Of a stretch of DNA of 32,457 bases, positions 1-8,067 are shown piece after piece. Numbering within the stretch: the first letter of the stretch is position 1; every line of letters begins with the position of its first letter. The stretch spans positions 1 through 32,457 of the forward strand of contig JAPLLL010000007.1 of the NCBI GenBank assembly GCA_026387595.1, given 5' to 3'. A model generated the notes under the pieces. It was not told the origin of the DNA, made no database searches, and saw only the letters and a list, made by a program, of their open reading frames with translations. The DNA comes from Candidatus Omnitrophota bacterium. GTDB taxonomy: Bacteria; Omnitrophota; Gorgyraeia; JABMQH01. A program made the translations under genes and the position numbers.

Positions 1-2
1 AG

Positions 3-872
3 GTAGCGTTTGACGTTGCTTCCAACCCGGAGTTTTTGCGGGAGGGCCAGGCGATCGGCGATTTCATGAAACCGGACAGGATCGTGATAGGCGTTGAATC
101 AAAGAAGGCAAAAGAGCTTTTGCTGGATCTGTACAGGCCGCTGGGCGCGCCTATCGTGGTTACTGATATAAAAAGCGCCGAGATAATAAAGCACGCCTCG
201 AACTCGTTTTTGGCGGCGAAGATATCGTTTATAAACGCAATAAGCAATGTTTGCGAAAAGGCATGCGCGGACATACAAAAAGTAGCGGCGGCAATGGGCC
301 TTGACAAACGCATTGGGAAAAGTTTCCTGAACGCCGGTATAGGCTACGGCGGATTTTGTTTTCCCAAGGATGTGTCCGCGTTTATAAGGATATCGGAAAA
401 GCTCGGGTATGATTTCGGCCTCCTCAAGGAAGTGGAGCGCATAAACGAATACCAGAAAAGGCTTTTTGTAAAAAAAATAGAAGACAGCCTCTGGATCGTG
501 AAAGGAAAACAGATCGGCCTTCTGGGCCTCGCATTTAAGCCCAATACGGATGACATAAGATTCGCCCCGGCCCTCGAGATAATCGAGGCGCTTATTTCCG
601 AAGGCGCGAAGATAAAGGCTTTTGACCCGCACGCAATGGGGAAAGCCAAAAAAACCCTGAAAGGCGTAAAATTCTGCAGGGATGCGTATGACGCGGCTGA
701 TGGGTCGGATTGCCTGGTGATCGCAACGGAATGGAACGAGTTTAAAGAACTTGACCTAAAAAAGGTAAAGAAGCTGCTGAAACAGCCGCTGATCATCGAC
801 GGGCGGAATATATATGACCCGGAGGCAATGAAAAAGGCAGGGTTTAAGTACATTTGTATGGGCAGGAAATAA
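3..872 (+). CDS. ugd: UDP-glucose 6-dehydrogenase, C-terminal portion (5' end lies outside the window)
   Basis: Frame 3 is open from the window edge. The translation VAFDVASNPEFLREGQAI... carries the NPEFLREG and GGFCFPKD motifs and the C-terminal GLAFKPNTDD domain of the UDP-glucose/GDP-mannose dehydrogenase family. The TTG at 36 in the ORF track is internal. Confidence 0.9.
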   Translation, partial: VAFDVASNPEFLREGQAIGDFMKPDRIVIGVESKKAKELLLDLYRPLGAPIVVTDIKSAEIIKHASNSFLAAKISFINAISNVCEKACADIQKVAAAMGLDKRIGKSFLNAGIGYGGFCFPKDVSAFIRISEKLGYDFGLLKEVERINEYQKRLFVKKIEDSLWIVKGKQIGLLGLAFKPNTDDIRFAPALEIIEALISEGAKIKAFDPHAMGKAKKTLKGVKFCRDAYDAADGSDCLVIATEWNEFKELDLKKVKKLLKQPLIIDGRNIYDPEAMKKAGFKYICMGRK

Positions 873-898
873 CGAAGGCACGACCGAGATTGACAGTC

Positions 899-947
899 GG
901 GACTGGTTCCAACCCAAATAATACACAGAAGCTAAGGAACCTGTCCC
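899..947 (+). other. Imperfect 12-bp stem (11/12 paired, one T-T mismatch) with a 25-nt loop, in the ugd / rmlC-like intergenic region
   Basis: GGGACTGGTTCC (899-910) pairs with GGAACCTGTCCC (936-947). No T-tract follows, so it is not a canonical intrinsic terminator. Confidence 0.3.
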
Positions 948-1011
948 ACAGAGTGATGAAACTGAGTAGCGACCTAAAAGAATGGTTGCAATAAATAATC
1001 GTGGAGAAATT

Positions 1012-1464
1012 ATGATAGAAGGTGTGAAAATTAAGAAATTAAAGATTATTCCGGATGAACGCGGCCGCCTCATGGAAATATTGCGCAAGGATGAGGATAT
1101 TTTTGTAAAATTCGGCCAGGTTTATATGACGACCGCATATCCTGGCGTGGTAAAGGCGTGGCATTATCACAAAAAGCAGACGGATAATTTTACGTGCGTG
1201 GCAGGCAGGATGCGGCTGGGGCTGTATGACGCAAGGCCGAACTCAAAAACGTTTAAGGCAGTTGAGGAGTTTATTGTGAGTTCGGATGAAAACCCGATAC
1301 TGGTTCAGATCCCGCCTTTAGTTTATCACGGCTTTAAATGCGTAGGCGATAAAGAAGCGATCGTGATAAATACCGTCACGCATCCGTATGATCCGAAAAA
1401 GCCGGACGAATACAGGATAGACGCTTATGATAATGATATCCCGTACGATTGGAGGAAACCATGA
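1012..1464 (+). CDS. dTDP-4-dehydrorhamnose 3,5-epimerase-like cupin (short RmlC family)
   Basis: IIPDERGRLMEI..., VKAWHYHKKQTD, YDARPNSKTF and PPLVYHGF match the RmlC-type cupin pattern. ATG 1012 is preceded by GGAG (1003-1006). ATG 982 is an in-frame alternative start. Confidence 0.75.
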   Translation: MIEGVKIKKLKIIPDERGRLMEILRKDEDIFVKFGQVYMTTAYPGVVKAWHYHKKQTDNFTCVAGRMRLGLYDARPNSKTFKAVEEFIVSSDENPILVQIPPLVYHGFKCVGDKEAIVINTVTHPYDPKKPDEYRIDAYDNDIPYDWRKP

Positions 1465-1763
1465 ACCCAGCCCCTCCTAAATTTTACTATGTATATATGC
1501 TAAGGAGCCCACAAACGAAATGGCTATATACTGGATGCACGTCAGACCTAAAAAAACGTTTGGCTGAACATAATTCAGGAAAAAATTATTCAACAAAGAA
1601 ATATTTACCTGTTGAATTGGTATATTATGAAGCGTATAGCTCTAAAAAGGATGCCTTTGAACGAGAAAATATGTTAAAACAACATGGCAGCAGTGTACAA
1701 AAACTTAAAAATAGACTTAAATGGACCTTAAAACCATTACTGAAAGAAGGAGGGGCTGGGTGA
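1461..1763 (+). CDS. Small GIY-YIG nuclease-domain protein (100 aa), cassette copy 1
   Basis: YYVYMLRS...LYTGCT...RLAEHN...FERENMLK fits the GIY-YIG catalytic-domain pattern (UPF0213/Slx1-like size). ATG 1461 follows GGAGG (1451-1455). It overlaps the upstream stop as ATGA and the downstream start as GTGA. Confidence 0.85.
   Translation: MNPAPPKFYYVYMLRSPQTKWLYTGCTSDLKKRLAEHNSGKNYSTKKYLPVELVYYEAYSSKKDAFERENMLKQHGSSVQKLKNRLKWTLKPLLKEGGAG
1465..1478. repeat. Left inverted-repeat arm of cassette 1 (ACCCAGCCCCTCCT)
   Basis: Exact reverse complement of 1748-1761. Confidence 0.95.
1748..1761. repeat. Right inverted-repeat arm of cassette 1 (AGGAGGGGCTGGGT); contains an SD-like GGAGG and the first two bases of the downstream GTG start
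   Basis: Exact reverse complement of 1465-1478. Confidence 0.95.
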
Positions 1764-2491
1764 AAGGCATAGTATTGGCAGGAGGCTTGGGGAAACGGCT
1801 ATACCCGTTGACAAAAATCACCAATAAACATCTTCTCCCTATTTATAATAAACCGATGATCTATTATCCGATAGAAACGCTTGTTGATGCCGGCATTAAA
1901 GAAATTGTTGTCGTAACAGGTGGCAATCACGCAGGCGAATTCTTAAGGCTTCTTGGGAACGGCCAGGAATTCGGTCTGAACCACCTTCATTACGCATATC
2001 AAGAGGGCGAAGGCGGGATCGCGGACGCGCTAAAATTGGCGGAACACCTTGTAGGTGACGATAAACTTGTAGTTATCCTTGGCGACAACATTATTGAAAA
2101 GAGCATAAGAAAACAGGTTGAGCGGTTTAAAAAACAAAGGCAGGGCGCGCGCATCCTGCTTAAAAAGGTAAGCGACCCGCAGCGTTTCGGCGTAGCCGAG
2201 ATAAAAAATGGCAAGGTTGTTTCGATAGAAGAAAAGCCAAAGAAACCAAAATCCGATTATATCGTTACCGGCATCTATATGTATGACAGCAAGGTCTTTG
2301 ACATTGCGCGTTCGCTTAAACCTTCGGGCAGGGGAGAGCTGGAGATAACCGACGTGAATAACGCCTATATTAAAAAAGGCCAGCTCACGTATGATTTCCT
2401 GGACGGCTGGTGGACCGATTCAGGCACGGTTGATTCGCTTTTGAAAGCGAATAATCTGGTTGCAAGGCTTAAGGGCGGGAAAAAGAAATAG
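1760..2491 (+). CDS. rmlA: Glucose-1-phosphate thymidylyl/nucleotidyltransferase (short RmlA-like form)
   Basis: (V)KGIVLAGGLGKRLYPLT..., LLPIYNKPMIYYP and EKPKKPKSDY are typical sugar-1-phosphate nucleotidylyltransferase motifs. GTG 1760 gives the canonical MKGIVLAGG N-terminus, with GGAGG 6 nt upstream. The ATG 1721 in the ORF track lies inside the GIY-YIG ORF and adds a non-homologous extension. Confidence 0.8.
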   Translation: MKGIVLAGGLGKRLYPLTKITNKHLLPIYNKPMIYYPIETLVDAGIKEIVVVTGGNHAGEFLRLLGNGQEFGLNHLHYAYQEGEGGIADALKLAEHLVGDDKLVVILGDNIIEKSIRKQVERFKKQRQGARILLKKVSDPQRFGVAEIKNGKVVSIEEKPKKPKSDYIVTGIYMYDSKVFDIARSLKPSGRGELEITDVNNAYIKKGQLTYDFLDGWWTDSGTVDSLLKANNLVARLKGGKKK

Positions 2492-3616
2492 ATGATACCG
2501 ATCGTAGATTTAAAAGGGCAATATCTAAGCGTAAAAAAAGAAGTAATGGAAGCTGTCGAAAAGGCCCTGGATAGCGGCCAGTTTGTAATGGGCGCGGAAG
2601 TCAAAAAGTTTGAAGAAGAAGCCGCGCAGTATACCAAAAGCAAATATGCCGTTTCCGTCGGGAACGGATCGGATGCATTACTTTTGGCTTTAAATGCCTA
2701 TGGAATAAAATCAGGTGATAGCGTTATTACGCCGGCATTTACATATTACGCCACTGCGGGCGCCATAGCGCGGTGCGGGGCAAAACCGGTTTTCTGCGAT
2801 ATTGACCCGAGGACGTATAATATCTCGCCTGAGAAATTGGAGGGGGTTCTTAGGGTCTTAGGGACAAAGGGTCATAGGGTTAAAGCGGTTATTCCTGTTC
2901 ATCTCTACGGGCAGATGGCGGAGATGGACGATATCCTGGCTATTGCGAAAAAGTACAATTTAAAAGTGATCGAGGATGCGGCGCAGGCGTTCGGCGCAAG
3001 CGACAAGGGTAGGAAGGCCGGCAGCATCGGCGATAGCGGCTGTTTTAGTTTTTATCCCGGCAAGAATTTAGGTGCTTACGGCGATGCCGGCTTGGTCGTA
3101 ACTAACGACAGCCAAACGGCTGGTTTAGTGAAGATCTACCGCAATCAGGGCGAGAAAAAGAAATACCAGCATTCGGTCATAGGCCATAACAGCCGCATGG
3201 ATACTATTCAGGCCGCGGTATTAAGCGTAAAGCTTAAATATATCGACGGGTGGAATAAAAAAAGGCAGCAATTAGCGGGGTTTTACGATAAGGAGCTGCG
3301 CAGTGCAGGCGTCATTACGCCGTTTGTCGCAAAGGATAAATTTCATATCTATCATTTATACGTGCTCCGGTTCAAGGATAAAGGCCAAAAAGACCGCATT
3401 GAAAAGAGCCTTAACGAGAAAGGCGTTGACGCAAGGACCTATTATCCTGTGCCGCTGCACCTGCAGGAGTGCTTTGAATACCTGGGATATAAAAAAGGTG
3501 ATTTTCCCGAAGCAGAAAAGGCGTGCGGCGAGACGCTCGCAATACCTATGTATCCTGAACTAAAACAGGAAGAGCAGGAATTTATCGTGAAGACAATAAA
3601 GGAAGGGCTAAAATGA
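2492..3616 (+). CDS. DegT/DnrJ/EryC1/StrS-family PLP-dependent sugar aminotransferase
   Basis: Full-length family pattern: [21 protein letters not shown] and [16 protein letters not shown] (PLP lysine). Confidence 0.9.
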
Positions 3617-4545
3617 AACTATTAGTTACCGGCGGGTGCGGTTTTATAGGCTCAAATTTTATCAGGTATATCCTGAAAAAACATCCGGGCTATAAAATCG
3701 TGAACCTTGACAACATTAAAGACCTGGAGAAAAAAAATAATTATAGATTTGTCAAAGGGGATATCTGCGACGAAAAAATAGTTTTAAAATTGTCAAAGGG
3801 TGCGGATGCAGTGATAAATTTTGCGGCCGAAACCCACGTTGACAGATCCATTAAGGACCCTGCAAGCTTTGTAAAGACCAATGTTTACGGCGTATATTCT
3901 ATTCTTGAGGCGGTCAGGAGGAACAGCATTAAACGGTTTGTTCAAATATCAACTGACGAAGTTTATGGCAGTATTTCCGTCGGAGAATTCAAGGAACCGG
4001 ATCCGCTCAGGCCCAACAGCCAGTATGCTGCCAGCAAGGAAGGCGCAGATCTTTTATGCAGGTCGTATTTTGTGACCTATAAAATGCAGGTTGTTATTAC
4101 GAGGAGTTCCAATAATTTCGGGCCGTATCAATACCCGGAAAAAGTGATCCCGCTTTTTGTTACGAATGCGCTGGAAAACAGGAAGCTGCCGGTTTACGCG
4201 GACGGCTTAAATGTGAGGGATTGGCTGTACGTAGAAGATAATTGCAGCGCCATAGACCTGGTTTTGCATAAAGGCCTTGCCGGTGAAGTTTATAATATCG
4301 GCGGCGGCAACGAACTCACGAACATGGCGCTTACTTACGCGATCCTGGGCCTGATGAGAAAACCCAAGAGCCTTATAAAATTCGTAAAGGACAGGCCCGG
4401 CCATGACAAACGATACGGCCTTGACTGCGGAAAAATAAAAAAAGAACTGGGCTGGGCACCGCGGCGCGGATTCAGGGCCGCCCTGAAGGAAACAGTTGAG
4501 TGGTATGAAGAAAATACAGAATGGTGGAAAAAACTTAAAGGATAA
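3613..4545 (+). CDS. rmlB: dTDP-glucose 4,6-dehydratase, lacking the conserved KLTYAGNLE segment
   Basis: [41 protein letters not shown] and [10 protein letters not shown] match RmlB. It overlaps degT by ATGA. See the finding on the 9-aa gap after VNLD. Confidence 0.85.
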
Positions 4546-4546
4546 A

Positions 4547-5848
4547 ATGGAAAATATATTGAAAAAGAAGATCCAGGAAAAGGAAGCAAAGATAGGTATT
4601 ATAGGCCTTGGTTACGTAGGGCTTCCGCTTGCGGTTGAATTTGCCAAAAAGGGCTTTGATGTCGTCGGGATAGATGTGGATAAGACAAAGGTCGCCTCGC
4701 TTAAACAGAAACGAAGCTATATCCTGGATGTTACCAGCGAGGATGTGAGGGCCGTTGTCAGCGCCGGGCTTTTTTACGCGACAACCGATTACGGCGCGAT
4801 AAAAAAGCTGGATGCGGTCATAATTTGTGTTCCCACCCCGTTAAGGAAAACAAAAGAACCCGATATTTCATACATTATATCAGCTGCGGAACAGATCGCA
4901 GCCAATAGCAAAAAAGGCCAGCTGGTTATCCTTGAAAGCACTACATATCCGGGCACTACAGAGGAGGTGGTGCTGCCGATCCTGGGGAAAAGCGGCATGA
5001 ATATAGACAAGGATTTTTTTCTCGCCTTCTCTCCGGAAAGAGTTGACCCGGGCAATTTAAAGTTCAAGACAAGGGATATACCCAAGATCGTGGGCGGCGT
5101 AACAAAAAAATCGTCTGATCTTGCGAAAACCTTGTATAGCCAGGTTATGAAAGAAGTCCTGACGGTTTCATCCAGCAAGGCAGCCGAAATGGTAAAGCTG
5201 CTTGAAAATACGTTCCGCAGCGTTAACATCGGCCTTGTCAACGAGATAGCCCTTATGTCGAATAAGCTTGGCATTAATGTCTGGGAAGTCATTGACGCCG
5301 CAAAGACGAAGCCGTTCGGATTCATGCCGTTTTATCCCGGGCCGGGCCTGGGCGGACACTGTATCCCCATTGATCCCCTGTATCTTTCCTGGAAAGCGCG
5401 CGCGTATGGTTTTGAGGCGAGATTTATTGAACTTGCCGATATGGTGAATTCCTACATGCCGGAATATGTAGTAAAACGCATTGGCGAGATCCTTAATGGA
5501 TTTAAAAAATCTCTTTTAGGTTCTAAGGTTCTGATCGTGGGGGTTACGTATAAACGGGACGTAAACGATATGCGGGAATCGCCGGCAATGGAGATCATAA
5601 GAGACCTGATGAAGAAAGGGGTTACAGTGTCGTATTTCGATCCATACGCGCCCAGGATAAATATTGACGGGAAAACGCTTTATTCAACAAAATGGAAACC
5701 GGCGATATTCAAAAAAGAGGACTGCGTAGTTATAATTACTGATCACTCGTCAATAGACTATGAAGAAATTTTAAAGAATTCCAAAATGGTGTTTGACACA
5801 AGAAATATCTATAAAAACATTGAGGCAAAAAACCTGGTGAGGCTATGA
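4547..5848 (+). CDS. Nucleotide-sugar dehydrogenase (UDP-GlcNAc/UDP-ManNAc 6-dehydrogenase family; WbpA/WecC/Cap5O-like)
   Basis: IGIIGLGYVGLPLA, SPERVDPGN, GPGLGGHCIP and GVTYKRDVNDMRESP match the family. ATG 4547 lies just after the rmlB stop (4543-4545). The TTG at 4496 is an unlikely upstream extension. Confidence 0.85.
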   Translation: MENILKKKIQEKEAKIGIIGLGYVGLPLAVEFAKKGFDVVGIDVDKTKVASLKQKRSYILDVTSEDVRAVVSAGLFYATTDYGAIKKLDAVIICVPTPLRKTKEPDISYIISAAEQIAANSKKGQLVILESTTYPGTTEEVVLPILGKSGMNIDKDFFLAFSPERVDPGNLKFKTRDIPKIVGGVTKKSSDLAKTLYSQVMKEVLTVSSSKAAEMVKLLENTFRSVNIGLVNEIALMSNKLGINVWEVIDAAKTKPFGFMPFYPGPGLGGHCIPIDPLYLSWKARAYGFEARFIELADMVNSYMPEYVVKRIGEILNGFKKSLLGSKVLIVGVTYKRDVNDMRESPAMEIIRDLMKKGVTVSYFDPYAPRINIDGKTLYSTKWKPAIFKKEDCVVIITDHSSIDYEEILKNSKMVFDTRNIYKNIEAKNLVRL

Positions 5849-5862
5849 ACCCCGCACCTTCT
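5849..5862. repeat. Left inverted-repeat arm of cassette 2 (ACCCCGCACCTTCT)
   Basis: Exact reverse complement of 6131-6144. It differs from the copy-1 arm at 3 positions, and each change is compensated in the partner arm. Confidence 0.95.
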
Positions 5863-5873
5863 GTATATTCAAA

Positions 5874-6146
5874 ATGTATTACGTATACCTTCTGAGAAGT
5901 GAGAAGAACGATAGTTTTTATATTGGATATACAAAAGATATCAATCGGCGATTTAAAGAGCATAATACAGGGTCGGTTGAATATACGAGGAAATATATGC
6001 CATGGGAATTAATTTACTATGAAAGCTTTATTTCGTTGGAAGATGCTAAAATACGTGAAAAAACTTTGAAGCATTTTGGAAAAGGATTTACACAATTGAA
6101 GATTAGACTCAAGAAGAGTTTGAATAAGAAAGAAGGTGCGGGGTGA
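5874..6146 (+). CDS. Small GIY-YIG nuclease-domain protein (90 aa), cassette copy 2
   Basis: MYYVYLLRS...FYIGYT...RFKEHN...IREKTLK matches the GIY-YIG pattern and, by eye, is roughly 40% identical to copy 1. It ends ...KEGAG (copy 1 ends ...EGGAG). There is no SD before ATG 5874, and the junction ATG at 5845 is in a different frame. Confidence 0.8.
   Translation: MYYVYLLRSEKNDSFYIGYTKDINRRFKEHNTGSVEYTRKYMPWELIYYESFISLEDAKIREKTLKHFGKGFTQLKIRLKKSLNKKEGAG
6131..6144. repeat. Right inverted-repeat arm of cassette 2 (AGAAGGTGCGGGGT)
   Basis: Exact reverse complement of 5849-5862. It supplies the G and T of the downstream GTG start (6143-6145). Confidence 0.95.
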
Positions 6147-7072
6147 AAAAAACGTATCTGGTTACGGGCGGGGCGGGATTTATAGGGTCAAATATCGTGG
6201 ATGAGTTGGTCAGACGCGGGCAACGTGTTAAAGTGGTTGACAGTTTCATTACCGGCCGCCGCGAAAATCTTAAACACCTTTCAGGCAAGATAGAATTGGT
6301 AAAAGGCGACATCAGGGATCTGAACCTTATGGTTAAGATCACCAAAGGGATAGACTATGTAATACACCAGGCTGCGTTCAGGTCTGTGCCAAAATCCGTC
6401 GAGGACCCGACGCTTTGTACCGAGACAAACGTTAATGGGACGCTCAATGTCTTGATCGCGGCGCATAAAGCGAAAGTTAAACGCGTAGTATACGCGTCCA
6501 GCAGCTCTGTCTACGGCGATGTTATTAAATTTCCCCAAAGGGAAGAGGATGATTTGTTCCCGCTTTCGCCGTATGGCGCGTCAAAATTGGCCGGCGAGCA
6601 TTATTGCAAAGTTTACACGGCCACGTGCGGGCTTGAGACGGTAGGCTTAAGGTATTTCAACGTTTTCGGGCCCAGGCAAAATCCTGAATCGAAATATTCG
6701 GCCGTGATCCCGATATTTATTTACAAAATGGTAAGGGGCCAGCGGCCCGTTGTTGACGGAGACGGAAAACAATCGCGCGATTTTACCTATGTTGCGAATG
6801 TTGTAGAAGCTAATCTGCGGGCAATAGTTGCAAAAGGCGCTTCAGGGCAGGTCATTAATGTCGGATGCGGCGGCAGTTATTCTGTATTAGATATCATAAC
6901 AGCGCTGAATAAATTCATCGGAAAAGATATAAAACCGGTTTTCGGGCCGGCCAGAAAGGGCGATGCCAGGAAAACCAAAGCGGATATCAGCAGGCTAAAA
7001 AAGTATCTCGGCATAACACCTAAGGTGGGTTTTGAAGACGGACTTAAGAAGACCCTGGCCTGGTTTGCCTGA
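6143..7072 (+). CDS. NAD-dependent epimerase/dehydratase (extended SDR; UDP-sugar 4-epimerase-like, WbpP/TviC type)
   Basis: (V)[28 protein letters not shown] and QSRDFTYV match the family. The GTG start overlaps the GIY-YIG stop as GTGA. Confidence 0.85.
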   Translation: MKKTYLVTGGAGFIGSNIVDELVRRGQRVKVVDSFITGRRENLKHLSGKIELVKGDIRDLNLMVKITKGIDYVIHQAAFRSVPKSVEDPTLCTETNVNGTLNVLIAAHKAKVKRVVYASSSSVYGDVIKFPQREEDDLFPLSPYGASKLAGEHYCKVYTATCGLETVGLRYFNVFGPRQNPESKYSAVIPIFIYKMVRGQRPVVDGDGKQSRDFTYVANVVEANLRAIVAKGASGQVINVGCGGSYSVLDIITALNKFIGKDIKPVFGPARKGDARKTKADISRLKKYLGITPKVGFEDGLKKTLAWFA

Positions 7073-7096
7073 TGCATGTATCCGATATAATTTTTC

Positions 7097-7124
7097 TTGA
7101 CTAATCCCGCCTAAATATTATAAT
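7097..7124 (+). promoter_or_regulatory. Sigma70-like promoter candidate upstream of uxs (TTGACT - 16 nt - TATAAT)
   Basis: TTGACT lies at 7097-7102 and TATAAT at 7119-7124, in the 95-bp AT-rich gap between the epimerase and uxs. The -10 sits inside a 12-bp palindrome, ATATTATAATAT (7115-7126). Confidence 0.55.
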
Positions 7125-7167
7125 ATATCTCTCGCTTCTATTGGTAATATCATAATATAATACCACC

Positions 7168-8067
7168 ATGAGATCAAAAACCATACTAATAACCGGCGGC
7201 GCAGGTTTTATCGGTTCTTACCTTTGCGAGTTTCTTTTGCAAAAAGGGTTTAAGGTTATATGTATGGATAACCTTATAACAGGCAGCCTCTCTAATGTCT
7301 CTCACCTTTTTAAGCATCCTAAATTTGAATTTGTCAAACATAATGTTTCGCGCTATATAACGATAAAAGGAAATATTTATTGTGTGCTCCATTTTGCCTC
7401 GCCCGCAAGCCCGGTAGACTATCTAAAGTTTCCAATACAAACAGCCAAGGCAAAAGGCGCCAGGTTCCTTTTGGCCTCTACAAGCGAGGTATACGGAGAT
7501 CCGCTAATACATCCGCAGCCCGAATCATACTGGGGCAATGTAAACCCCGTAGGGCCAAGAGGAGTATATGATGAGGCAAAACGGTTTGCAGAAGCGATAA
7601 CAATGGCTTACCACAGGGTCCATAAGATAGATACCAAGATAGTCCGTATTTTTAATACCTACGGCCCAAGGATGCGGAAAGAAGACGGCAGGGCAATACC
7701 AAATTTTGTAAGCAAGGCCCTTAAAAATAAACCTATTACCGTATACGGGAAGGGCCGACAGACCAGGCGTTTCTGCTATGTTACTGACCTGGTAGACGGG
7801 CTATATAGGCTTATGAACTCTAGCATTAACGAACCCGTGAATATCGGAAACCCGAATGAAATGACCATTCTGAAACTTGCTAAAGAGATTATAAAAATTT
7901 CAGAGAGTAAAAGCAAGATCGTATATAAACCGCTTCCTCAGGATGATCCCAAAACGCGTCAGCCGGATATAAAAAAGGCAAGCGCGCTTTTAAAGTGGAA
8001 ACCGAAAGTAGGCCTGGAAGAAGGGCTGACCGAAACTATAAATTATTTTAGAAAGATCTCTGGTTAA
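7168..8067 (+). CDS. uxs: UDP-glucuronate decarboxylase (UDP-xylose synthase) homologue with a 14-aa internal in-frame gap
   Basis: [54 protein letters not shown] and QTRRFCYV match UXS. The TNxxGTxNxLGL helix expected between PIQT and AKAKGARF is absent. Confidence 0.8.

Follow-up and report, generated by a model that had tools for sequence, protein, structure and literature searches.

The DNA analysed here (the window) is a stretch of 32,457 nucleotides from an Omnitrophota bacterium (contig JAPLLL010000007.1), which carries two copies of a small cassette encoding a GIY-YIG protein. Copy 1 (1465-1761) lies between an rmlC-like gene and a gene for an RmlA-like nucleotidyltransferase, and copy 2 (5849-6144) between genes for a UDP-glucose/GDP-mannose dehydrogenase (UGDH) and an NAD-dependent epimerase/dehydratase. 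Direct reading of the sequence placed each copy exactly in an ATGA stop/start overlap, as an earlier note on this DNA had claimed, and the open reading frames (ORFs) and the neighbours identified with Pfam agreed with this. At copy 1, the junctions read ...GGAGGAAACC ATGA, then ACCCAGCCCCTCCT...AGGAGGGGCTGGGT, then GAAAGGC; at copy 2 they read ...GGTGAGGCT ATGA, then ACCCCGCACCTTCT...AGAAGGTGCGGGGT, then GAAAAAAACG. Excision in silico gave back ATG-start genes as predicted, ATGAAAGGC (MKGIVLAGG) for copy 1 and ATGAAAAAAACG (MKKTYLVTGG) for copy 2. For the two sites the predicted empty junctions are GGAGGAAACCATGAAAGGCATAG and GGTGAGGCTATGAAAAAAACGTATC; GGGTGAACCC would be an example of an end-to-end element joint, and ATGAAAGG the empty target duplex. 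The earlier note also had the downstream gene restart on a GTG made of element end and flank, which proved correct at both copies (GTG 1760 and GTG 6143) and, in the form (G/A)TG, at the start-codon sites of the family described below. Its proposal that the cassette ORF starts on the host ATG was right for copy 1 but not for copy 2, where ATG 5845 is out of frame and the nuclease ORF runs from ATG 5874.

ATGA overlaps were found at 11 of the ~32 gene junctions in the window, two of them occupied; the nine previously listed as unoccupied are indeed so, and seven of them read ATGAA. On the + strand of the window ATGA occurs 192 times, 11 of them at gene junctions, and both elements sit in junction copies. 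Together with 23 independent relatives in the same register (see below), this means that the placement is not due to chance. A pattern search of the window allowing 2 mismatches gave just the four arms of copies 1 and 2, and a mini-hairpin scan gave no further copy.

A feature overlooked in the earlier note is the perfect 14-bp inverted repeat at the ends of each cassette (1465-1478 with 1748-1761, and 5849-5862 with 6131-6144), which closes it. The stems of copies 1 and 2 differ at three positions, and all three differences are compensated in the opposite arm. In both minimum free energy and centroid RNA folds the stem closed the whole cassette, with z scores of -2.9 and -5.4 for copies 1 and 2, respectively. 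Among 83 homologous copies, a perfect bracketing inverted repeat of 11-23 bp was present in 65, and one of at least 13 bp in 54, compared to 0 of the 247 control windows that were shifted within these loci. The arms comprise 57 distinct sequences, all of which start with (A/T/G)CCC, and the element ends with GGG(T/A/C). The homologs keep MNPAPP at the N-terminus and GGAG before the stop at the C-terminus, the two stretches of the protein that the arms encode. Only ~10-30 nt of the element lie outside ORF and arms. Searching positions 1-8000 of the window against Rfam gave zero matches even at E<=1, which rules out a known intron, ribozyme or riboswitch there, including a group I or group II ribozyme core.

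Covariation was assessed with 13 distinct start-codon copies that were anchored on host motifs and not on complementarity. In this set, compensatory changes on both sides were seen at 11 of the 14 stem pairs, and 97.8% of cells were paired, compared to 43-54% when the partners were slid; none of 500 shuffles attained the observed values. The first break of the stem was G:T or T:G in 27 of the 65 copies (background 17%, p = 3e-6), and A:C or C:A in 3 (background 12%), i.e., a ratio of 9:1 against a background of 1.4:1 (Fisher p = 6e-4). This strand asymmetry of G·U tolerance is as expected of a helix of the sense strand (RNA or sense single-stranded DNA), not of a double-stranded protein-binding repeat, and arms acting only as a double-stranded, protein-binding terminal inverted repeat (TIR) are disfavoured by it. 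The G·U tolerance points to pairing of the arms in the sense-strand RNA.

To place the two copies in a wider family, one genome per GTDB species was scanned, 247 relatives were found and 80 loci retrieved (designated L plus a number), and further start-codon contexts were fetched by exact-protein lookup. One of these loci, an Elusimicrobiota contig (L163), provided an occupied rnfE/rnfA junction, ...GTGAGAAA ATGA, then ACCC...GGGGTGA, then AAGAACTCG, with a cassette 66% identical to copy 1. It was compared with L183-185 and L188, where the junctions are empty: ...GAGAAAACA ATGA AAGAATTA (94% RnfA identity) and ...GTTAAAAA ATGA AAGAACTT (89%), the empty site reading ATGAAAGAA. When ACCC...GGGTGA was taken out of L163 in silico, the result was exactly the empty-site architecture of the relatives. 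For the family, it is thereby demonstrated that the element goes into an ATGA overlap and that TGA(A) is then found in two copies, though this is not demonstrated for the window's own two sites; empty-site alleles of the kind that the earlier note had suggested looking for exist at this sister locus. For copy 1, no record of an identical RmlA protein was found, and no empty allele was seen among the 80 closest orthologs. The element was absent from all 80 of these metagenomic RmlA orthologs (59-78% identity), most of which begin with ATGAA(A/G)GG. The closest non-identical relative of the copy 2 site (L190, 84%) shares the synteny and the position of the UGDH stop, and lacks the element. The 0 of 80 among the RmlA orthologs and the element-free L190 show that the insertion is the derived state.

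At the starts of protein genes, 23 independent insertions were found in unrelated operons, with host junctions that include rmlC/rmlA, UGDH/epimerase, RnfE/RnfA, DUF134/ArsP, AlaRS/HisD, RND/RND and sigma-70/PRTase. In all 23, the downstream ORF begins at -1 of the right arm, on a (G/A)TG formed by the last 1-2 arm bases and the flank. The stop of the upstream gene lies within the junction at 18 of the sites, while the other five (L002, L008, L014, L060, and L061) have no overlapping upstream gene, from which it follows that the target is the start codon, with insertion between ATGA and A, and not the overlap itself. The suggestion that the element targets coupled gene junctions without breaking either neighbour needs to be revised: the neighbours are unbroken, but the five sites and the RNA genes described below are targets of other kinds. 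Members of a large clade, copy 1 among them, use the host ATG as the in-frame start of the cassette ORF, downstream of the host Shine-Dalgarno (SD) sequence. The right arm (AGGAGGGG or AGGAAGGG) sets an SD-like run ~6 nt ahead of the rebuilt start, and we infer that this purine-rich arm (AGGAGG or AGGAAGG) is a replacement SD. Tandem re-insertion at the regenerated junction was seen in L176, L012 and L010. The elements, ~280-320 nt in length and with one small nuclease gene, apparently form a widespread, undescribed family of hairpin-bounded selfish elements, present in several phyla (Omnitrophota, Planctomycetota, Elusimicrobiota, many lineages of the candidate phyla radiation [CPR], and possibly DPANN archaea). 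A search of IMG/VR for phage-borne relatives gave none.

Two start-codon copies deviate in their right arms. The element of L002 (4005-4346, protein P0019) is 342 nt long and has a duplicated ORF tail, ...GRAGESSPSKVKQKPENSLKGRAG, which suggests that the right arm has been duplicated. In L173 (1501-1791), flanked on either side by an RND-pump gene, decay has reached the outer part of the right arm (GGGGCGGAGTGA for GGGGCGGGGTGA) and both junction overlaps are kept; this may be an ageing copy.

When the family profile was compared with PDB, matches were obtained to the UPF0213 proteins 1zg2 (7.6e-10) and 1ywl (7e-7) and to SLX1 (3e-4), and neither I-TevI nor UvrC was among the profile matches at E<=0.01. 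Alignment of 26 diverse members, with proteins of 84-115 aa, revealed the invariant columns Y12, Y23, G25, R33, H37 and E69, which cover the catalytic residues, and no conserved Asn after the catalytic Glu, the criterion for the lineage of UvrC and the homing endonucleases (UvrC+; PMC1564403). Judging from the sequences, the cassette proteins belong to the Slx1/UPF0213 lineage of GIY-YIG proteins, with predicted nuclease activity. At orthologous sites, the ratio of nonsynonymous to synonymous substitution (dN/dS) was 0.01-0.16, even at dS of ~1, and the arms were identical over that span; the nuclease ORF is under purifying selection. Vertical inheritance at orthologous sites was seen for L161/L171, L033/L040 and L041/L049. 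In a neighbour-joining tree, start-codon copies appeared in at least 4 places among RNA-borne copies, with the site classes intermixed, and the idea that the start-codon copies are one specialised clade was rejected on this ground. The two copies in the window fall into different deep lineages of the tree and were hence acquired independently.

Relatives were also located in RNA genes with Rfam and ARAGORN: eight in 16S rRNA (L024, L035, L042, L048, L065, L073, L075, and L080) and two in 23S rRNA (L069 and L078). In RNase P RNA, the copies are inserted at P3, immediately 5' of AGGAAAGUCCG. In CPR bacteria, copies also occur at tRNA and tmRNA 5' ends, where the right arm supplies nucleotides 1-4 of the RNA with its final 3-4 nt (GGGC or GGGG). 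Cassette ORF and host gene point the same way in all RNA-gene cases but L023 (3953-4271), whose left flank, gtccggactttcct, matches the P4 strand of RNase P in reverse complement.

Several loci had further peculiarities. Five copies from Omnitrophota, Planctomycetota and unclassified metagenome-assembled genomes (L013 3975-4278, L016 4009-4318, L036 3134-3443, L034, and L059) have common flanks, tgaatttg before and ttaattcg(c/t)agac after the element, which suggests a conserved host feature; ARAGORN gave no name for it, nor did Rfam at gathering threshold, and right arm plus flank (GGGGTTTAATTCGCAGACGG) loosely resemble a tmRNA 5' end. L067 (3940-4345; also L029) has a GIY-YIG ORF without simple arms, unlike the standard element, and is flanked by two direct copies of a unit made up of a tRNA 5' fragment (GGGCCCATAG), a 38-nt mini hairpin and CCCATAGCTCATC. 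In L065 (3899-6775 and 7037-7114), the 16S gene spans ~2.9 kb and must for that reason hold further large insertions besides the GIY-YIG element; a match to group II intron D1-D4 lies just downstream. In L069 (7266-7545), the 23S gene has an additional group I intron.

The earlier note had likened the TGAA at both ends to a target-site duplication. TGA(A) does occur at both ends of both copies in the window, and TGAA flanks 11 copies of the family, but the repeat has no fixed length, with 0, 3-4, 5-8 or 8-11 nt from one site to another. It measures 4 nt in most start-codon copies and 5-8 nt in others (ATGAA, ATGAAT, GGATGAA, GGATGGA, TGGATGAA, and GGATGAGT), whereas tRNA-5' copies have 8-11 nt (e.g., GGGCCTTTAGC), and a direct-repeat scan found no flanking repeat at the rRNA and RNase P copies. 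A fixed-length target-site duplication was rejected because of this variation and the lack of repeats at the rRNA and RNase P sites. In every case, the flanking repeat overlaps the right terminus of the element, and it looks more like homology between right end and target than like the product of a fixed staggered cut.

Hairpins of 26-105 nt without an ORF, hereafter minis, were found with the same termini at the same kinds of site. In L012, a 51-nt mini and a full copy stand in tandem at one ATGA; in L010, a full copy is followed by two 86-nt minis in a tandem array; L176 has a 28-nt mini and a full copy; and in L044, one full copy and a pair of identical 30-nt minis lie within ~550 nt, all three with the arm CCCCCACCACTTTT. 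Further minis are located at tRNA 5' ends (L045 and L050). In all six of these loci, the minis share their arms with a nearby full copy. GC-rich hairpins in L066 and L068 were left out of the count, as T-runs follow them and they are probably ordinary terminators. The relationship between ORF-bearing and ORF-less forms speaks for the termini as the mobilised unit, and it is chiefly because of the minis that we rank a terminus-directed mechanism above pure homing.

Taken as a whole package, we consider it probable, if by no means assured, that the cassettes are hairpin-bounded selfish elements with terminus-directed mobilisation. The sequences show that the element enters at a start codon, between ATGA and the next A and usually at a TGA/ATG overlap, that the host's original SD and ATG end up ahead of the cassette, and that element end and flank give the host gene a new (G/A)TG; upstream gene, cassette ORF and downstream gene all stay intact. 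Under our model, the arms would pair in the sense-strand transcript as an insulating helix. In structured RNAs this helix would be an extension that is removed or tolerated, and in operon mRNAs it would keep stop and start adjacent. RNA stem and SD-like arm could together make the insertion expression-neutral. The nuclease might act in trans on the terminal stem or a junction structure, mobilising full and mini copies alike, and integration may be guided by short homology of the element's right end (...GGG[G/A]TGAA, or ...GGGGC at tRNAs) with the target, which would account for the variable repeat length. Whether this amounts to a new class of prokaryotic mobile element, a ~0.3-kb hairpin with an Slx1-like structure-specific GIY-YIG protein as mobilising enzyme, is a more tentative matter, to which we lean slightly towards no. 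Similarly, integration of such a class at gene 5' boundaries or RNA helices, with the host's first nucleotides regenerated from the right end, is a good possibility on which we would not quite rely.

A number of observations weigh against terminus-directed mobilisation. Neither transposition nor an excision product nor activity of the nuclease has so far been seen, and its role is one that we infer; the protein consists of the catalytic domain only, and no module for DNA binding can be recognised in it. The copies per genome are few and diverged (48% protein identity by BLASTP between the two in the window), which is more like a homing-endonuclease gene than a bursting transposon. Repeat lengths of 0-11 nt fit no single simple cleavage geometry, and the G·U tolerance of the stem is equally compatible with sense RNA and sense single-stranded DNA. 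Among the 80 RmlA orthologs, the rmlC-rmlA junctions have spacers or other overlaps, none an exact ATGA, and at L190 the junction is a TAATG overlap and not the predicted ATGA. No empty allele of copy 2 is on record: four other contigs with an identical epimerase are all identical across the element, which indicates that copy 2 is fixed in its population. This population is contained in the sequencing runs ERR15302179, ERR15302191, ERR15302206 and ERR15302223. (Differing gene calls on two contigs, L180 and L181, were dismissed as an annotation artefact, the sequences being identical across the element.) The neighbour-joining tree is rough, as it rests on ~85 residues only, and L023 appears antisense to its RNase P host, the sole exception to co-orientation.

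The strongest competitor, which we nevertheless hold to be unlikely, is a free-standing homing-endonuclease gene that cuts the cognate empty allele and is copied in by break repair, with the stem serving as an RNA insulator only, the termini bound by no protein, and new sites arising rarely, through illegitimate recombination. GIY-YIG is a classic homing-endonuclease fold, and the few, diverged copies, the vertical inheritance at L161/L171, L033/L040 and L041/L049, the fixation of copy 2, the rRNA and RNase P sites without flanking repeats, and the occurrence of GIY-YIG ORFs among CPR rRNA gene insertions (Tsurumaki et al. 2024, PMC11270868) would all suit it. Against it speak the minis with the same arms, which occur at several sites per genome and in tandem with full copies, and the short repeats that accompany start-codon and tRNA insertions. 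The proteins are of the Slx1/UPF0213 lineage and have no I-TevI-type DNA-binding domain, and start codons, tRNA 5' ends and rRNA helices are used by closely interleaved protein lineages; neither an extended module for recognising sites of 14-40 bp nor one conserved cognate site per lineage was found. Purifying selection also persists after fixation, unlike the usual decay cycle of homing endonucleases.

Strong purifying selection on ORF and arms in vertical descent could instead indicate a domesticated, host-beneficial module that has ceased to be mobile, in which the stem-loop is an RNA-processing or stability signal (e.g., an RNase III site uncoupling or tuning the two halves of an operon) and the protein a retained factor for RNA or DNA processing on which the host has come to depend. 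Fixation in the sampled population, co-orientation with host genes nearly throughout, the sense-strand G·U signature of an RNA helix, and fusions hinting at a role of prokaryotic Slx1-like proteins in RNA metabolism (Dunin-Horkawicz et al. 2006, PMC1564403) are in line with this. We find it quite improbable, however, given its sporadic distribution (0 of 80 RmlA orthologs, empty sites in 84-94% relatives), the same element in unrelated operons and RNA genes of several phyla, the tandem arrays and degenerate arms (L010, L173), and the origin of the window copies from different lineages. Least credible by far is RNA-mediated mobility, in which a hairpin RNA freed by RNase III, RNase P or its own nuclease would be reverse-transcribed in trans into nicked targets, perhaps as GIY-YIG endonucleases serve Penelope-like retroelements: the RNA-type stem signature, co-orientation with host transcription, and repeats of variable length with homology to the 3' end of the element in every case, as is typical when reverse transcription is target-primed, would fit, but there is no reverse transcriptase in or near the elements (Pfam, neighbour genes looked up), the nuclease lies outside the Penelope cluster, the rRNA and RNase P sites lack flanking repeats, and the idea is speculation with no direct support.

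We also compared the hairpin-bounded element with known systems. Non-intron insertions bearing GIY-YIG ORFs in CPR rRNA genes were reportedly noticed by Brown et al. in 2015. Such insertions were judged unlikely to spread by homing by Tsurumaki et al. 2024 (PMC11270868), who described GIY-YIG ORFs in non-intron CPR rRNA insertions. Like the relatives found here, they have small GIY-YIG ORFs and are neither group I nor group II introns, and they very probably belong to the same family as our rRNA-borne relatives. The account in PMC11270868 has no terminal stem, minis, tRNA, tmRNA, RNase P or start-codon sites, and the copies in the window lie in an Omnitrophota polysaccharide operon, not in rRNA. 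In the literature searched, there was only this bare mention of GIY-YIG ORFs in CPR rRNA insertions, and the architecture, minis and start-codon targeting were undescribed.

The intervening sequences (IVSs) of 23S rRNA in Salmonella, Leptospira, Coxiella and other bacteria resemble the element in that their paired ends form a stem off a host RNA helix, that they sometimes carry a small ORF, and that they are sporadic. Their ORFs encode S23p four-helix-bundle proteins, not nucleases. IVSs are not known outside rRNA. The ends of the window copies likewise pair into a stem, but the genes on either side of them encode proteins, and a start codon is rebuilt, although relatives do occupy 16S and 23S. 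This description of IVSs follows in part the introduction of PMC11270868.

Free-standing GIY-YIG homing endonucleases (T4 Seg, I-TevI relatives) are likewise nuclease genes that lie among host genes without damage to these, occur in low copy number and spread horizontally; they differ in their homing-endonuclease/UvrC+ lineage and long DNA-binding extensions, and have no terminal inverted repeats, minis, flanking repeats or start-codon replacement. The standalone prokaryotic Slx1-like proteins (UPF0213/COG2827/YhbQ; PDB 1zg2, 1ywl), which gave the best profile matches in PDB, have the same minimal domain of ~90-100 aa and likewise lack the C-terminal Asn typical of UvrC+ proteins, but in our case an inserted, hairpin-bounded element carries the gene as cargo. 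TIR transposons and miniature inverted-repeat transposable elements (MITEs) share with the element the terminal inverted repeats, short direct repeats at many sites, and ORF-less copies with common termini. In contrast to TIR transposons, the autonomous element here is only ~0.3 kb and encodes no DDE, HUH, Ser or Tyr transposase (its sole ORF being GIY-YIG), its flanking repeat has no fixed length, and its inverted repeat is RNA-helix-like. IS200/IS605 elements are likewise very small, form hairpins in single-stranded nucleic acid, and insert next to a tetranucleotide with a related tetranucleotide at the other end, and by analogy such ends could mimic the TGAA...TGAA arrangement; they have a Y1 HUH transposase and separate subterminal hairpins, whereas here there is no such ORF and a single end-to-end stem. 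Rickettsia palindromic elements are likewise palindromic selfish DNA tolerated within protein and RNA genes through structure, but they have no ORF, are translated in frame inside host proteins, and do not target start codons. Unlike in an integron cassette, the inverted repeat here spans both ORF ends and there is no 3' attC; no integrase-like gene was among the genes called beside the looked-up copies, and the window beyond 1-8000 was not scanned for one. Conservatively, the element can be filed as a variant of IVS-like, MITE-like and homing-endonuclease-like kinds.

The Slx1-like lineage has been regarded as cellular, vertically inherited repair proteins, with all selfish GIY-YIG proteins derived from the other lineage (Dunin-Horkawicz et al. 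2006, PMC1564403). If our model is true, the 'cellular' Slx1/UPF0213 branch would have a selfish mobile clade, contradicting a sole UvrC+ origin of selfish GIY-YIG proteins, and possibly a new kind of mobilising enzyme. The insertion strategy, in which the host ribosome-binding site and ATG are seized and a replacement SD and GTG returned, would be new to the literature searched, and one design would serve start codons, tRNA/tmRNA 5' ends and rRNA helices. It would also unify the unexplained GIY-YIG insertions in CPR rRNA genes with small GC-rich hairpins at RNA-gene 5' ends. For annotation, the cassettes are misleading, with missed GTG starts, missed 'hypothetical' 90-aa ORFs, and split 16S and RNase P genes, and an insert neutral to translational coupling would be of interest to operon engineers.

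Table 1. Features of the two cassette copies and their host genes (positions in the window)
Feature	Copy	Positions	Strand	Basis	Remarks
Upstream host gene, rmlC-like cupin/epimerase	1	982..1464	+	Pfam dTDP_sugar_isom 1.8e-16	Stop TGA 1462-1464 inside junction ATGA 1461-1464
TGAA direct repeat, left	1	1462..1465	+	Sequence and direct-repeat scan	
Left stem arm (ACCCAGCCCCTCCT)	1	1465..1478	+	RNA fold and covariation	Codes NPAPP of cassette ORF
Cassette ORF, 100-aa Slx1/UPF0213-type GIY-YIG nuclease (predicted)	1	1461..1763	+	Pfam PF01541 2.4e-16	Starts on the host's former ATG, downstream of host SD GGAGG 1452-1456; stop TGA 1761-1763
Right stem arm (AGGAGGGGCTGGGT)	1	1748..1761	+	RNA fold and covariation	SD-like run AGGAGG 1748-1753, 6 nt 5' of rebuilt GTG
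TGAA direct repeat, right	1	1761..1764	+	Sequence and direct-repeat scan	
Downstream host gene, RmlA-like nucleotidyltransferase	1	1760..2491	+	Pfam NTP_transferase 1.5e-63	GTG start overlaps cassette stop TGA; N-terminus MKGIVLAGG agrees with orthologs (n=80)
Upstream host gene, UDP-glucose/GDP-mannose dehydrogenase	2	4496..5848	+	Pfam	Stop TGA 5846-5848 inside ATGA 5845-5848; C-terminus ...NLVRL before the stop, same in relative L190
TGAA direct repeat, left	2	5846..5849	+	Sequence and direct-repeat scan	
Left stem arm (ACCCCGCACCTTCT)	2	5849..5862	+	Fold and covariation	Outside nuclease ORF
16-codon ORF from the host's former ATG (MNPAPSVYSKCITYTF, then stop)	2	5845..5895	+		Out of frame with nuclease ORF
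Cassette ORF, 90-aa GIY-YIG nuclease (predicted)	2	5874..6146	+	Pfam 6.8e-16	Stop TGA 6144-6146
Right stem arm (AGAAGGTGCGGGGT)	2	6131..6144	+	Fold and covariation	
TGAA direct repeat, right	2	6144..6147	+	Sequence and direct-repeat scan	
Downstream host gene, NAD-dependent epimerase/dehydratase	2	6143..7072	+	Pfam Epimerase 3.3e-65	Start GTG 6143 overlaps cassette stop TGA

The ~33 long ORFs of the window (1-32457) are all on the + strand, and the whole looks like a single polysaccharide/nucleotide-sugar biosynthesis cluster. The dehydrogenase ORF upstream of copy 2 was delimited mechanically, and with its TTG start at 4496 it would overlap the preceding gene (3613-4545) by 50 nt; as the Pfam match begins only at residue 32, the true start is probably downstream of 4496. 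Finally, a GIY-YIG homolog (51% identity, residues 22-87) was observed on a metagenome contig (L154, 3284-3478) shortly 3' of an rmlA ortholog.

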